A DNA stretch of 64,000 nt from Escherichia coli (GTDB lineage: Bacteria; Pseudomonadota; Gammaproteobacteria; Enterobacterales; Enterobacteriaceae): the NCBI RefSeq assembly GCF_041886205.1, contig NZ_CP169029.1; one strand, given 5' to 3'. Shown piece after piece: positions 36,312 to 48,300 of the stretch. The stretch's first letter is position 1, and every line of letters starts with the position of its first letter. The position numbers are program-made.

Positions 36312-39300
36312 TAATAACGCTACGCCTGTAAGGCGCACTGGCAGTTCCCTCTCCCCTCTGGGGAGGATCTATTAAGTTCTGTTGATGTCAACTGATTTCA
36401 ACAGAACTCTATCCTCTCCATTAAATCTCCTTTAAAATAAGGCATTATCAGAAATTACTCCTCTCTGGATGTCAACCATCCTCCATGAACATCAAGATGA
36501 TTTCGGGGGCTATTGTGGGGGCTACTTTTCGGGGTTAACATCATGCCACTTACTGTTCGACAAATTGAGTCGGCTAAACCCGCTGACAAGGATTACAAAC
36601 TTTCCGACGGTCAGGGACTTTATCTTCTTGTCAAAAAATCCGGCGCCCGTTACTGGAATCTGAAGTACCGGTTTGCCGGTAAGGAAAAGAAACTGGTGAT
36701 TGGTGTCTATCCGGACATATCTCTGGCTCAGGCTCGTCAGAAACGGGATGAAGCGCGTAAACTCCTGGCTGAAGGAAAAGATCCATCATATGAGAAACAG
36801 GCGCGAAAACTTGCCATCAGGGAAAGTATGGCCTGCACATTTCGCACCATTGCAGAGGAATTACTTACCCATATGGCTCGTCGATGGACAACTGGTTACC
36901 AGGCAGACCAGCGTGCAAGACTTGAAAATCATGTTTTCCCTGCAATTGGGAATCGTCCGGTGACCGGGATCCGCCCCATGGAAATACTGAACGTCCTGAG
37001 AGTTATTGAAGAACAGGGAAAACTTGAAGCACTGCGTAAAACACGCCAGCTCTGTGCGCAGGTTTTTGATTATGCCATAGCAACAGGACGTGCAACCGTT
37101 AACCCGGCGTCAACACTCAGCGGGGTACTGCTTCCTCCTGAAAAACAACAGCGCAGGACACTTTCTGAAGAGCAGATGGGGGCTTTCATGCATCAGATGA
37201 CGGCTTCCGGAAATCTGATGTCGCTGACAACGCGAATGCTGGTTCTTACTGCTGTTCGCACCGGAGAACTGCGGCTGGCGACCTGGGATGAAATAAATTT
37301 CACGGAGGCCCTGTGGGTCATTCCGAAAGAAAGAATGAAAATGCGACGACCGCATGTTGTACCGCTTTCACGTCAGGTACTGGCGTTACTGAAGGAGATA
37401 AAAACACGCACTGAATCGCGTAATTCCGCCTTTATTATTCCCGGGGCATTCAGAAAAGATCGCCCCCGAAGCCGTAAGTGTATCAATGAATTCCTTGAAC
37501 AGTCAGGCTGGCATGCCCTGACAACAGCTCACGGATTTCGTCATACCTTCAGCACCATTCTCCATGACCATGATTTCAGCTCAGCCTGGATTGAACTCCA
37601 GCTTGCCCACGTTGATAAAAACGTCATGCGTGGCACCTATAACCACGCCCAGTATCTGGATGGTCGCCGTGAAATGATGCAGTGGTATGCTGACTACATT
37701 GATTCGCTTTCTTAGCAAACCTGATGAATCAGTGACATAAAAATAATGAATAACCATCTGGCCCCGAAAGCCGGATGGTTTTATTTATGTTTTCTTTTTT
37801 ATTTGCTCACATCTTCTGAACTTCCCCTGCAGACAATAATCTGAACACCAGATATAGAGCCACTCATGAAACAAAATAGAATTACATTGAATAATAACTT
37901 ACATTTTTTGTTACATTCATTCCATATTTGTCCCTGGTTGATTGCCAGAACTACGCCGTGATGCATGATAGGAGAATTAGATAATAAGAGAAGAAAAGTA
38001 TGATTCGGGTAGTGCTGGTGGATGACCATGTGGTGGTGCGCTCTGGCTTCGCACAATTACTCTCTCTGGAAGACGATCTGGAGGTCATTGGTCAGTACAG
38101 TAGTGCCGCGCAGGCATGGTCGGCATTAATCCGTGATGACGTCAATGTTGCCGTCATTGATATTGCCATGCCGGACGAAAACGGCCTCAGTTTGCTTAAG
38201 CGCCTGCGTGCACAAAAACCGCAATTTCGCGCCATTATTCTTAGCATTTATGACGCGCCAACCTTTGTGCAAAGCGCGCTGGATGCCGGTGCCAGCGGGT
38301 ATTTAACCAAACGCTGTGGGCCGGAAGAGTTAGTGCAGGCGGTGCGCTCGGTCGGGCTGGGCGGGCATTATCTCTGTGCCGATGCGATTCGGGCTTTACG
38401 CGGCGGCGGGCAACCCGCCCAGGCGCTGGAAATTCTCACCCCGCGAGAACGTGAAGTGTTTGATTTACTTGTCAAAGGAGACAGCGTTAAAGAGATCGCC
38501 TTTAAACTCGAACTCAGTCATAAAACGGTACATGTGCATCGCGCCAATGTGCTGGGAAAACTGAACTGCCATAGCACCATTGAACTGGTGCATTTTGCGC
38601 TCGACCACCATCTGCTGGCGGGGCATTAATGTCGCGCAATCTTCGTCATTGGGTGATTTCGTTGTTTATTGTGCTGGCCTGGGGAACCGGCTGGCTGATG
38701 CTGTGGACGCTCAGCTTTTATCTGACCAATAACGGTCAACAGGCGGCGCTGTTTCTGCCGCACGGGGTTTATCTCGCCCTTCTTATTTTGCTTGCACGCC
38801 GCTACTGGCCTGCGCTGGTGCTCCCCCCTTTGCTGATGATGTTCTGGCTCCATAGCGAACAGCTATTGAACGGTTATATCATGCTGGCAACGCCGGTTAT
38901 TAGCCTGTTTCCTGCCATCCTTGCGCAAAACGTCTGGCACCGTTTTCCACTTTACTGGCAGCGTCTGACGTTACTGTTAGCCACGGTCACAACAGCTTCA
39001 TTGCTGAATACCGCCCTGCTCTCCCCTTTTATGTCAGGCCCAATAATGCTGCCGGGTTTGACCTCATTTACCGGCGGCGTATTACTGACGCCGTTTGTCT
39101 ATCTCATCTTTGAGTTTCTGCGCCAGCAGCATCGCTACCAGCTCCTGGGACTCGATACGCATAATCCCCCCTTGCGTACCTCTTTAATCATCTGGTGTAG
39201 CCTGTTTTTTATTATTGGTATCGGCACTCAGATAGTGCTGTCACCTGAAATTGAACGTCTGCTGTTGATCGTAGTTTTTCTACCCAACGTGGTGATGGCA

Positions 39301-45300: not shown

Positions 45301-48300
45301 TTAACATCACTTCGCTCTATGTGACTCACGATCAAAGTGAAGCTTTCGCGGTGTCCGACACTGTGCTGGTGATGAACAAAGGTCACATCATGCAAATTGG
45401 CTCGCCGCAGGATCTCTATCGTCAGCCCGCCTCCCGCTTTATGGCAAGTTTTATGGGCGACGCCAACCTGTTCCCAGCGAACTTTCGCGAAGAGTATGTC
45501 GATATCTACGGTTATCGCCTGCCGCGCGCGGCGCATTTCCCGGCGCAAGGTAGCGGCACCGTCGGCGTTCGCCCGGAAGCCATCACCTTAAGCAATCACG
45601 GCGAAGAGAGTCAGCGTTGTGTTATACGCCATGTCGCCTACATGGGGCCGCAGTACGAAGTGACCGTAGAGTGGCATGGTCAGGAGATTTTATTACAAGT
45701 CAACGCCACCCGTTTACAGCCCGATATTGGTGAGCACTATTACCTTGAAATCCATCCTTACGGGATGTTTGTTTTAGCGGATGCAGCATAAACATAGCGC
45801 ATAAACGGTCCCCTCTTACCCTGAGGGGACATCATCTGCTTACATTTCAGACATAATTATTTTCTGGTCCCCTGTTTTACAGAACAACATTTGGAAACAT
45901 TCTCAGGAAAATTACCAGCAATCATTCAGAAAAGTCATGATATAAATAAATCAATGGGGTATACCAGTATCAATATCGTACTCAAACTCATCAAATAGCT
46001 GTAATCAGATTATTTCTCTCCCACATTGTTGTACAACTCAACTTTAATAAAATTATTTTTGTTATAAAAAGCAGGAATATATCATTTATCAGTCATCGTC
46101 AGATATCATTTACTTACCTGTATGATTGTTACTGTCAGGAAGAATAAGTTGCTGTGACTTAAGGCTGTCTGCAGGAACGTTCTTCTCTCCGTTAAAAACC
46201 ATAACGGGTTCATTATCTTCGTCTGTCAGCGGATTGAATGGCGGTATATTTTCAGTACGAATGCCGGTCAGCCACTGAAAAATACCTGCAAAATGACGGG
46301 CACTGATTTTTCTGCTGACGGACCGATGAGACATTATGTCACTGGCAGTAATAATCAGGGGAACGCTGTAGCCTCCTTGTATATGGCCATCATGATGAAC
46401 AGGATTAGCACTGTCGCTGACTGACAGTCCATGGTCAGAAAAGTAAAGCATGGCAAAATGACGGGAATGTCGGCGAAGGATACCATCAAGCTGCCCGAGA
46501 AAGTTATCCAGTTTACTGATGCTGGCGAGGTAACAGGCAATCTTCCGTGGGAACTGCTCCTGGTAATTATTCGGCCAGGAGTTAAGCCGGTCACACGGAT
46601 TCGGATGAGAACCCATCATGTGCAGGAAAATGACCTTCGGAGAGGATGTATCCGCCAGTGCACGTTCTGTTTCCTGTAACAACAGCATATCATCCGTTTT
46701 ACGGGAAGCAAAGCTGCCTTTCTTGAGGAAATGTAATGAACGCATCCCACTCAATTAAACACGGAGCAGTATGATGGTTAACAGGGAGAAATTGGCAGGT
46801 GTGGAGCCTCGCAGATTTCCGGCACCATAGTGCCCAATACGGGATACAAAAAGTTCCCTCAGACTGGAGACTCCTCAAATGAAATATACACTGGTTGAGG
46901 TTGACACCAAAACATATCAAGGTTGAGCGGATGTGTCAGGAGGAAGGTAAAAATTCTGAAAAATAACGGGAGGGACGTGCTACCCTGATGCCTCCGTTGT
47001 ATTCTTTTACGCTGCCGGCGCCCGTATTTTGTGCGGGTATCGAACAGGATCACCGCATGAGCCATTGCTGAGACGCTCACTTTTTTTCGCATGCATTACA
47101 GGAGTGATGGCTCAGTCGGTGATTTTGTTGAGGTGAGAGCCGATATGGGAAAACGATATAAAATAACTGCGACAATAACCAAGCCTGGTCATACACCGGC
47201 TCAGTGGCAGCGTTACCAGAACGAAAAAATGACACACGCCGAATGTGAAAAACTGTTTGCGCCCGCAAAAGAGCCCGGACGGTATATCAGTGTCCGGGTA
47301 GAGGACTTCCGGTGTGAAGAGGTGAAGGCCTGATATGAAAATAAAAAACCTCCGGTTGAGCCGGAGGTGGCAAGAATATATTCGAAGTCTGTATCTGTGT
47401 GAAGAATTTATTAATCTGTTTCTGTGGTTTAATCCACTGCTGATTTATCTAATATATGAGGTATAAAATCAACAGACAGCTTGTATTTTTGTGATCGATA
47501 TTGAAAAAAATAATGTTTTCCAGGATACATTGTTTTCAGTACCAATACCATAACGTACGAGAAAAATCAGTGACAGTCGGGCTGGAATGCCGGATAATAT
47601 TTCTGTCCGGTTTTTCGCCGGAGCATTGATGAAATCATTTCTCTTGCCATTGAGAACATTTCTCAGCCGGGCGTGAAAGCCCGGTTTTTTTGCTATTCCC
47701 GACCGTAAATGTACAGTCATGTTACTATTATCTGTAATTAGTCCGGTTTTCCTTTAACAAAAGACGGACAGCGGGTGTTCACTGCGTGTTATATCAGAAA
47801 CCTTAATAATCTGTTACCGGTTCTGAAATGGTAGTGGTACGTGACGCCAGCAATCATCCACACGGAGGCTTCCTGTAAATATAAATAATGGTTTAATACA
47901 GCAACACTGCAGATGACTTCTGAACTGAAAACGGCTACATTACACCATTGAACATAGAATGAAAAGCCAGGTACACGCTCCGTTACACTAAACTGCCCCC
48001 AAGTTATATCAATATGTTCTATTTATAAGTAGAATTTTTTATAACGCAAAACAATATGTATTGCTGACAGGCCGAAAATAACTTCTGTTTATTTGACCTT
48101 AATCAAAATGCGAGAGCAAAATTATTACAATATATATTAAATAGAAAAGAGCGAGTCAAATGTTCAGTCAGGCTGAACACATAATATTAAAACTTTCTTT
48201 TTGTCATTGGTTACTATGTGCGGACGATCTCTGTATATTGCCAGCTACTGTGGGATATCTAAAGGAAAATGCCTGATAAAATATACCGGCAACTGAACTG

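Follow-up and report, generated by a model that had tools for sequence, protein, structure and literature searches.

A Uhp-like sensor beside an AfuABC importer: O-island OI-20 of Escherichia coli as a candidate cassette for sugar-phosphate-inducible uptake

What does a sensor of the hexose-6-phosphate type control, and what does it sense, when the genes that follow it encode not the antiporter UhpT but an AfuABC-type ATP-binding cassette (ABC) importer? The question is raised by positions 38000–45791 of a 64,000-nt stretch of Escherichia coli DNA (RefSeq assembly GCF_041886205.1, contig NZ_CP169029.1), which was analysed as a whole and is referred to here as the window. Six co-oriented open reading frames (ORFs) lie on the plus strand (38000–38629, 38629–40170, 40243–41559, 41556–42587, 42655–44733 and 44733–45791), in the order UhpA-like, UhpB-like, UhpC-like, afuA, afuB and afuC, exactly where an earlier note on this DNA had placed them. 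The note had also stated that no UhpT antiporter follows, and indeed no uhpT homologue was found adjoining the block, in which the only UhpT-like match is the uhpC-like gene itself. As a sensing-plus-ABC-uptake variant of the Uhp system, which is how the note viewed it, the locus is not new, since the window is 96.7% identical at the DNA level to several O157:H7 chromosomes over 37906–45816 (7.9 kb), the limits at which the homology begins and ends, with the same annotated genes. By this identity the cassette is a copy of the published E. coli O157:H7 element O-island OI-20 (fusR, fusK, z0461 and afuABC), which, like its Citrobacter rodentium counterpart, contains the same six genes in the same order and represents the same system. 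Sensor and importer halves have both been studied in O157:H7, where their position side by side has also been published, so that the locus is not a new one; in the EDL933 literature Z0463 is named fusR, Z0462 fusK and Z0461 the “fucose transporter.” Our reading of the block is that it forms a self-contained six-gene cassette for sugar-phosphate-inducible ABC uptake, a reading to which we incline rather than one of which we are sure.

The homology of the three regulatory proteins to UhpA, UhpB and UhpC lies far beyond chance, so that their earlier description as paralogues of the hexose-6-phosphate sensor stands. The response regulator (FusR, Z0463; 38000–38629, plus strand), which is composed of a receiver and a GerE/LuxR helix-turn-helix domain, is 48% identical to UhpA of K-12 (E 2e-60). 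Its best NCBIfam match is the UhpA model (NF007685; 193.4 bits, under the equivalog cut-off of 258), and by homology it is a UhpA paralogue of the same architecture rather than an orthologue. The sensor histidine kinase (FusK, Z0462; 38629–40170, plus strand) aligns with UhpB at 34% identity over its full length (E 2e-70), conserves the H-box ELHDEIGQ and has the MASE1, HisKA_3 and HATPase architecture, which was assigned by Pfam on orthologues; on the NCBIfam UhpB model (NF008649) it reaches 378 bits against a cut-off of 408. The third component is a major facilitator superfamily (MFS) protein (Z0461; 40255–41559, plus strand, with the ORF open from 40243), whose identity is 53% with UhpC (E 1e-164) and only 30% with UhpT. 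With 588.5 bits it exceeds the cut-off of the NCBIfam UhpC model (NF008661; 564 bits), and by this curated NCBI threshold it is classed as UhpC-type. Transporters of the UhpT type require two arginines (R46 and R275) for organophosphate binding. K-12 UhpC, the window protein and two distant orthologues all retain both of these without change, along with K82 of UhpT, and D388 and K391 of UhpT are replaced by uncharged residues in the window protein, as they are in UhpC. Because the MFS protein keeps R46 and R275, a sugar-phosphate receptor is favoured, which the conserved arginines would suit better than they would a carrier of the neutral sugar fucose. The likeness to the UhpABCT system of K-12 extends to the gene order (regulator, kinase, MFS receptor), to the one-base overlap of the regulator and kinase genes (TAATG at fusR/fusK, as for uhpA/uhpB), to the domain architectures and to a UhpC-type receptor with conserved arginines. 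The two systems differ in their output, which is the UhpT antiporter in K-12 and an ATP-driven ABC importer in the cassette, and in the attachment of the receptor gene, which is joined to the transporter operon in the cassette but to the regulator and kinase genes in K-12.

The importer half has the composition expected of AfuABC systems, namely the binding protein AfuA (41556–42587, plus strand), AfuB (42655–44733, plus strand), a fused double permease of 692 amino acids with two BPD_transp-type halves by NCBIfam, and AfuC (44745–45791, plus strand, with the ORF open from 44733), an ATPase with a TOBE domain that scores 695 bits on NCBIfam PRK11432 (cut-off 496). The same fused AfuB permease and AfuC ATPase are found in Actinobacillus pleuropneumoniae, to whose AfuA (PDB 4R72–4R75) the window protein is 76% identical (E 8e-167 against 4R72); the identity to 8X1A is 78%. 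A. pleuropneumoniae AfuA has been crystallised with glucose-6-phosphate (G6P), fructose-6-phosphate (F6P) and sedoheptulose-7-phosphate (S7P), which are contacted by S37, T150, H205, D206 and E229 (Sit et al., 2015; PMC4546632). In an alignment with 4R72 and 8X1A all five ligand residues are kept, such that the phosphate-contacting S37 and T150 correspond to S62 and T174 of the window AfuA, and the sugar-coordinating H205, D206 and E229 to H229, D230 and E253. Two of these positions also separate the protein from P5PA, the pyridoxal-phosphate-binding paralogue of the same fold family (PDB 6WCE), which has H-A and A where the window AfuA has H-D and E, so that D230 and E253 speak against a P5PA-type binding protein. 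Transport itself has been shown by others for orthologues: the AfuABC orthologue of C. rodentium binds and imports sugar phosphates, as judged by isothermal titration calorimetry and growth assays, binding and transport of G6P, F6P and S7P have been demonstrated with the proteins of A. pleuropneumoniae and C. rodentium, and AfuABC was shown to carry sugar phosphates rather than iron (PMC4546632).

How firmly the sensor is tied to this importer can be read from other genomes. An AfuA profile scan with one genome per species gave 281 AfuA relatives, of which the best 80 were kept; all of these 80 loci belong to Enterobacterales, and in 79 of them the flank on at least one side allows the gene order to be checked. 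As far as it is readable, the order regulator, kinase, uhpC-like gene, afuA, afuB and afuC is present in each of these informative loci (79/79), and uhpT was not found in any of the best 80. Across the loci the identity of AfuA is 84–98%, while that of the kinase drops to 55%; AfuB, detected in 78 of the 80, is 80–99% identical. The six-gene module was also found in two more loci reached from the AfuA side (a Photorhabdus genome and a metagenome contig) and in three reached from the kinase side (Providencia, Edwardsiella and a record labelled Aeromonas), which brings the count to 84 of 84 informative loci (79 + 2 + 3) in about 30 named genera. Outside this group the picture is different, as none of three afuABC loci from Pasteurellaceae, a family sampled by three protein look-ups rather than surveyed (Vibrionaceae were not included), has sensor genes beside it, and in some a second paralogue of afuA is present, unlike in the cassette. 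Since these importers do without a sensor, the linkage is not forced by the transporter, and its strict conservation across gut bacteria suggests that the main job of the sensor would be to switch the importer on. Two of the Pasteurellaceae loci (L088, 8001–10181, and L089, 8001–10161) carry two tandem binding-protein genes before afuB, which probably correspond to the pair of AfuA and P5PA (vitamin B6) described for Actinobacillus. The record labelled Aeromonas jandaei (L092) is an 18-kb contig with enterobacterial-looking neighbours, a lacZ-like gene and an amino-acid permease gene, and may represent contamination or a recent transfer. A protein of 393 amino acids (P0334), encoded in one genome, combines the kinase's MASE1 portion (93% identical) with an ABC permease domain, as if fusK had been fused to afuB by a deletion.

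The same survey bears on the reported distribution and origin of FusKR, which reviews describe as specific to enterohaemorrhagic E. coli (EHEC) O157:H7 and possibly acquired from Enterococcus (E. faecalis). Among the 120 closest relatives of the kinase, many of which have no source name, the named sources are all Enterobacterales with the exception of the one Aeromonas record, and Enterococcus is not among them. Of 5426 complete E. coli genomes, 518 match an 8.3-kb block spanning the cassette over 80% or more of its length, and non-O157 isolates of pig, chicken and dog origin are among them. Neither O157:H7 specificity nor an origin in E. faecalis is supported by these kinase-relative and genome data. 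In ~457 E. coli records, among them K-12 MG1655 and some plasmids, only a remnant is present, consisting of the end of afuB and afuC at ~85% identity (window 44385–45791), with no sensor genes or afuA.

The gap between the kinase and uhpC-like genes contains a candidate for a regulated promoter within the cassette. This gap is near-constant, measuring 63–84 nt to the position of the 40243 ATG in most loci and 72 nt in the window. The 40243 ATG is missing in most genera, whereas a GGAG-N6-ATG that leads to position 40255 is conserved in the intergenic alignment; because of the conservation of both its ATG and its GGAG, 40255 is preferred and is most likely the start of the uhpC-like gene, 12 nt downstream of the start assumed before, so that the gap extends to 84 nt. 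Directly 3′ of the kinase stop is an imperfect palindrome, CCAGGA-AAAAG-TCTTAG (40171–40187, plus strand), whose pattern has a single match in the whole window. Among 74 distinct sequences its consensus, CCAGGA-N5-TCYTRG, has a mean column identity of 92.6%. The palindrome is perfect in Buttiauxella and Erwinia, and its arms co-vary between genera (CCAGGA/TCCTGG, CTAGGA/TCCTAG, CTAAGA/TCTTAG and CCAAGA/TCTTGG). It is followed by the rest of a predicted promoter, P2 (40203–40235, plus strand), which consists of the near-invariant TCTCATCC (40203–40210, 98.6% column identity), a 19-nt spacer and the −10 element TATAGT (40230–40235, 91%). Taken together, the palindrome, TCTCATCC, TATAGT and the ribosome-binding site GGAG are 91–99% conserved, compared with 67–71% in the surrounding intergenic stretches that have no assignment. 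With TATAGT as −10, transcription would start at ~40242, with the centre of the palindrome at ~−63 and TCTCATCC at about −39 to −32. No recognisable −35 hexamer is present in P2, and since the hexamer is absent and a palindrome lies upstream, the layout is that of an activator-dependent promoter, with the palindrome as the candidate binding site of the cassette's own regulator. The uhpT promoter of K-12 contains CCAGG-N5-CCTGG and TCAGGCCTGA between the CAP site and the −10 element, and both fall, according to a secondary description, in the reported UhpA-binding region. The CCAGG/CCTGG half-site 5′ of the transporter genes, common to the cassette and the uhpT promoter, is offered as a lead; a CAP site was not noted by eye in the cassette, for which no scan was made.

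Downstream of P2 the genes are closely packed. The stop of the uhpC-like gene and the start of afuA are separated by −4, −1 or 4–60 nt in nearly all loci, which leaves no room for a separate afuA promoter and fits co-transcription of the two genes. In the window they share the overlap ATGA (AAACAATGAAAATG), as the note had read it, with the ATG at 41556 and the TGA at 41557–41559; this ATG is located inside a longer ORF with a GTG start (41229–42587). The overlap of afuB and afuC stop and start codons, which the note had likewise described, takes the form TAATG and requires afuC to start at 44733, whereas the ATG at 44745, 6 nt past a GGAG (44735–44738) and identical to the RefSeq start in the near-identical strain JML285, is the likely start, 12 nt downstream, leaving an 11-nt gap after afuB. 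Between afuA and afuB no overlap exists, but a 67-nt spacer with a GC-rich hairpin (42607–42635, plus strand; −25.2 kcal/mol, z = −2.7). All 76 loci examined have a hairpin behind afuA, with a folding energy of −16.7 kcal/mol or lower and sequences that differ between genera; it likely acts as a partial terminator or mRNA stabiliser that gives more binding protein than permease. Some versions (Buttiauxella and Atlantibacter) have a T-rich tail like that of a true terminator, and in some Citrobacter the hairpin consists of repeat-like insertions of 136–139 nt. The single translationally coupled uhpC-afuABC transcript proposed in the note is thus supported at its first junction, where the spacing fits co-transcription, and weakened at the next, where the conserved hairpin parts afuA from afuB. 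The same can be said of its wider interpretation as sensing plus uptake, of which the Uhp paralogy, the ligand class of AfuA and a spacing that fits joint transcription of the uhpC-like gene and afuA remain, while the variant is not new and the coupling was put too strongly.

The regulator gene has its own conserved upstream region, P1 (37906–37999, plus strand), which was defined by a promoter scan and by an alignment of 75 upstream regions, in which conservation starts ~110 nt 5′ of the ATG. P1 contains a −35 element TTGCCA (37942–37947), a −10 element CATGAT (37964–37969) and, just 5′ of the −35, the remnant of a TGTTAC-N4-6-GTAACA palindrome (37909–37926). This palindrome differs from that of P2; Buttiauxella, Lelliottia, Atlantibacter and Cedecea show it clearly, and the E. 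coli version is degenerate.

From the observed parts, their linkage and the conserved non-coding blocks we infer a signal, a direction of regulation and a start of transcription that would combine into the following circuit. The genes for the regulator and the kinase would be driven from P1, predicted to be a weak constitutive promoter. The UhpC-type membrane protein would bind an external hexose or heptose phosphate and, as in the Uhp system, switch the MASE1 kinase to phosphorylate the regulator. The phosphorylated regulator would then bind the palindrome at about −63 and activate P2, in the 84-nt gap before 40255, from which the uhpC-like gene, afuA, afuB and afuC are predicted to be transcribed, such that the receptor is induced along with the importer. 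The hairpin after afuA would keep AfuA in excess over AfuBC. Control of ler by the same regulator, as reported for EHEC, would have been added later to an older circuit. On a more tentative level, and with doubts that outweigh our confidence, FusKR and Z0461 could accordingly be described as the sensor arm of an old Enterobacterales sugar-phosphate cassette, in which sugar phosphates and not fucose are the signal, afuABC is the primary target and control of the LEE (locus of enterocyte effacement) is a recent, lineage-specific add-on.

Several points weigh against a sugar-phosphate-inducible cassette. A generic sigma-70 promoter scan did not call P2 and placed sites only 5′ of the regulator gene, the transcription start near 40242 is a prediction, and the palindrome could be a small RNA hairpin. 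Its spacing is CCAGG-N7-CCTGG in the cassette and CCAGG-N5-CCTGG in the uhpT promoter. Furthermore, the regulator and the kinase score under the NCBI equivalog cut-offs for UhpA and UhpB, so that their ligand may differ. In the literature no experiment was found that would connect the regulator with afuABC or with sugar phosphates, and a joint mention of FusK and UhpB in the searched literature occurs only in Sit et al. (2015), where regulation was not tested. Above all, the proposed circuit is in partial conflict with the published fucose sensor and repressor account, since FusK is said to respond to fucose and FusR to repress z0461.

The best-surviving alternative is this published account as it stands, in which FusK senses free L-fucose, FusR mainly represses ler, z0461 and the fuc genes, the MFS protein imports fucose, afuABC is a bystander or is co-repressed by fucose, and sugar phosphates have no role in signalling. 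Taken as a whole we regard it as rather unlikely, despite its experimental basis, as summarised in reviews that describe FusKR as a fucose sensor repressing ler and z0461. According to reviews of Pacheco et al. (2012), fucose triggers the autophosphorylation of FusK, as later work is also reported to find, the effect of FusR on z0461 and the fuc genes is repression and not activation, and deletion of z0461 impairs growth on fucose, in line with its description as needed for optimal fucose import. Reviews and later work also report that FusR binds the ler promoter at a 31-bp site and that fucose- or 2′-fucosyllactose-dependent LEE repression is lost upon deletion of fusKR. Against this stands the MFS protein itself, a UhpC-type member of the organophosphate:phosphate antiporter family that keeps both phosphate-binding arginines, a feature that one would not expect if it carried a neutral sugar. 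About 30 named genera, most of them not known to carry the LEE, have the cassette, and it is always joined to afuABC. A palindrome upstream of a promoter without a −35 element is moreover a layout typical of activation, and a search of the window that allowed up to 3 mismatches found no match to the FusR box reported for the ler promoter. A 10-mer of this box, GAATAATAAC, occurs once in the window (37889–37898), 102–111 nt 5′ of the regulator gene and just outside the stretch common to O157:H7; the occurrence may be due to chance, as at least one match was obtained in 7 of 100 shuffles. Finally, RNA-seq of EDL933 in bovine gut contents showed up-regulation of Z0463, Z0462, Z0461 and Z0459 (afuB) alike, so that fusKR, z0461 and afuB rise together, and the whole of OI-20 was reported to be induced by mucus (as cited in Sit et al., PMC4546632). 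This induction fits co-regulation of sensor and importer, but leaves the signal unnamed. It may be that the fucose picture and the sugar-phosphate picture both partly hold.

A less probable alternative, to which we give little credence, is that all six genes form one operon transcribed from P1 that contains no regulated promoter. What is conserved behind the kinase gene would then be an RNA element (such as a hairpin for stabilisation or processing, with translation signals), the sensor would control genes elsewhere, and the linkage would reflect inheritance as one mobile unit. Such an operon would agree with the six co-oriented genes and their short gaps as well as with the sigma-70 sites found only 5′ of the regulator gene, the co-variation of the palindrome arms would suit an RNA stem too, and three or more chromosomal sites in Escherichia indicate that the cassette moves as a unit. 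However, in the largest clade the stem is imperfect (CCAGGA/UCUUAG, with a C-A mismatch) and yet about 50 loci share it unchanged, the spacing of the conserved TCTCATCC and TATAGT is fixed, as for promoter elements, and no Rfam family matches the region (36000–48000). The linkage also holds down to a kinase identity of 55%, in genera whose cassette lies among ordinary chromosomal genes and with no integrase in the flanks. Lastly, that AfuABC imports ferric iron can, as far as sequence goes, be dismissed with near certainty, as this idea derives from automatic names (“ferric ABC transporter ATP-binding protein FbpC,” “iron(III) transport system”) and from a distant similarity to FbpA and HitA (E 1e-10 to 1e-14), members of the same binding-protein fold family and operon type, whereas the identity to sugar-phosphate AfuA is 76–78% against E about 1e-14 for the nearest ferric protein, the Tyr-Tyr pair in NNYYW of HitA, which together with a Glu coordinates iron in proteins of the FbpA type, aligns with L-H in GFLHD of the window AfuA, and the acidic residues of its TEE motif face G-G in GGT. 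The check proposed in the earlier note, whether AfuA clusters with iron-binding FbpA, has thereby been carried out: the sugar-phosphate ligand residues are kept and the iron tyrosines are gone, so that by alignment AfuA groups with the sugar-phosphate-binding AfuA proteins and not with ferric FbpA, and the ferric-iron annotation of AfuABC is wrong.

In the window the cassette is part of an island and sits behind a P4-type integrase directly after glnH (34537–37780). The tyrosine-type (P4-like) integrase gene (36513–37715, plus strand; NCBIfam integrase domain, 272 bits), which belongs to the island and not to the cassette, is also annotated in E. coli records that share the glnH-integrase junction, which is common to 18 complete E. 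coli genomes. It is followed by a terminator-like hairpin with an 11-bp stem and a T run (37752–37780, plus strand) that shields the cassette from upstream transcription. By contrast, in strain JML285 the cassette follows tRNA-Phe and an integrase, and in O157:H7 OI-20 lies between tauA and frmR without an integrase. Since these three Escherichia sites (window 34537–37780; L001, 6592–8025; L002, 4830–6095) are different, the cassette moves as a unit within Escherichia. A tRNA-linked insertion in the window was considered and rejected, as ARAGORN found no tRNA gene there. Behind afuC a short hairpin, CCCCTC-N7-GAGGGG, was read from the sequence (45810–45828, plus strand). The rest of the island (46110–63969) begins with a phosphoethanolamine-transferase/sulfatase fragment (46110–46754, minus strand) and contains two IS66-family elements (49127–51460 and 56640–59255), an AraC/GadX-like regulator gene (52966–53700), a cytochrome b562 gene and a truncated catalase-peroxidase ORF (63082–63969). 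It also carries genes for an AphA-type periplasmic acid phosphatase (55195–55917) and an OmpC/PhoE-like porin (59515–60696), a curious neighbourhood for a sugar-phosphate importer.

The locus itself is ordinary, and its interest lies in the mismatch between the literature and the comparative picture, from which a testable regulatory hypothesis arises. If the sensor of OI-20 is indeed the switch of a sugar-phosphate importer, a second, UhpT-independent route of sugar-phosphate uptake would gain a defined regulatory circuit, and the accepted view of the way in which EHEC perceives where in the gut it is would have to be revised.

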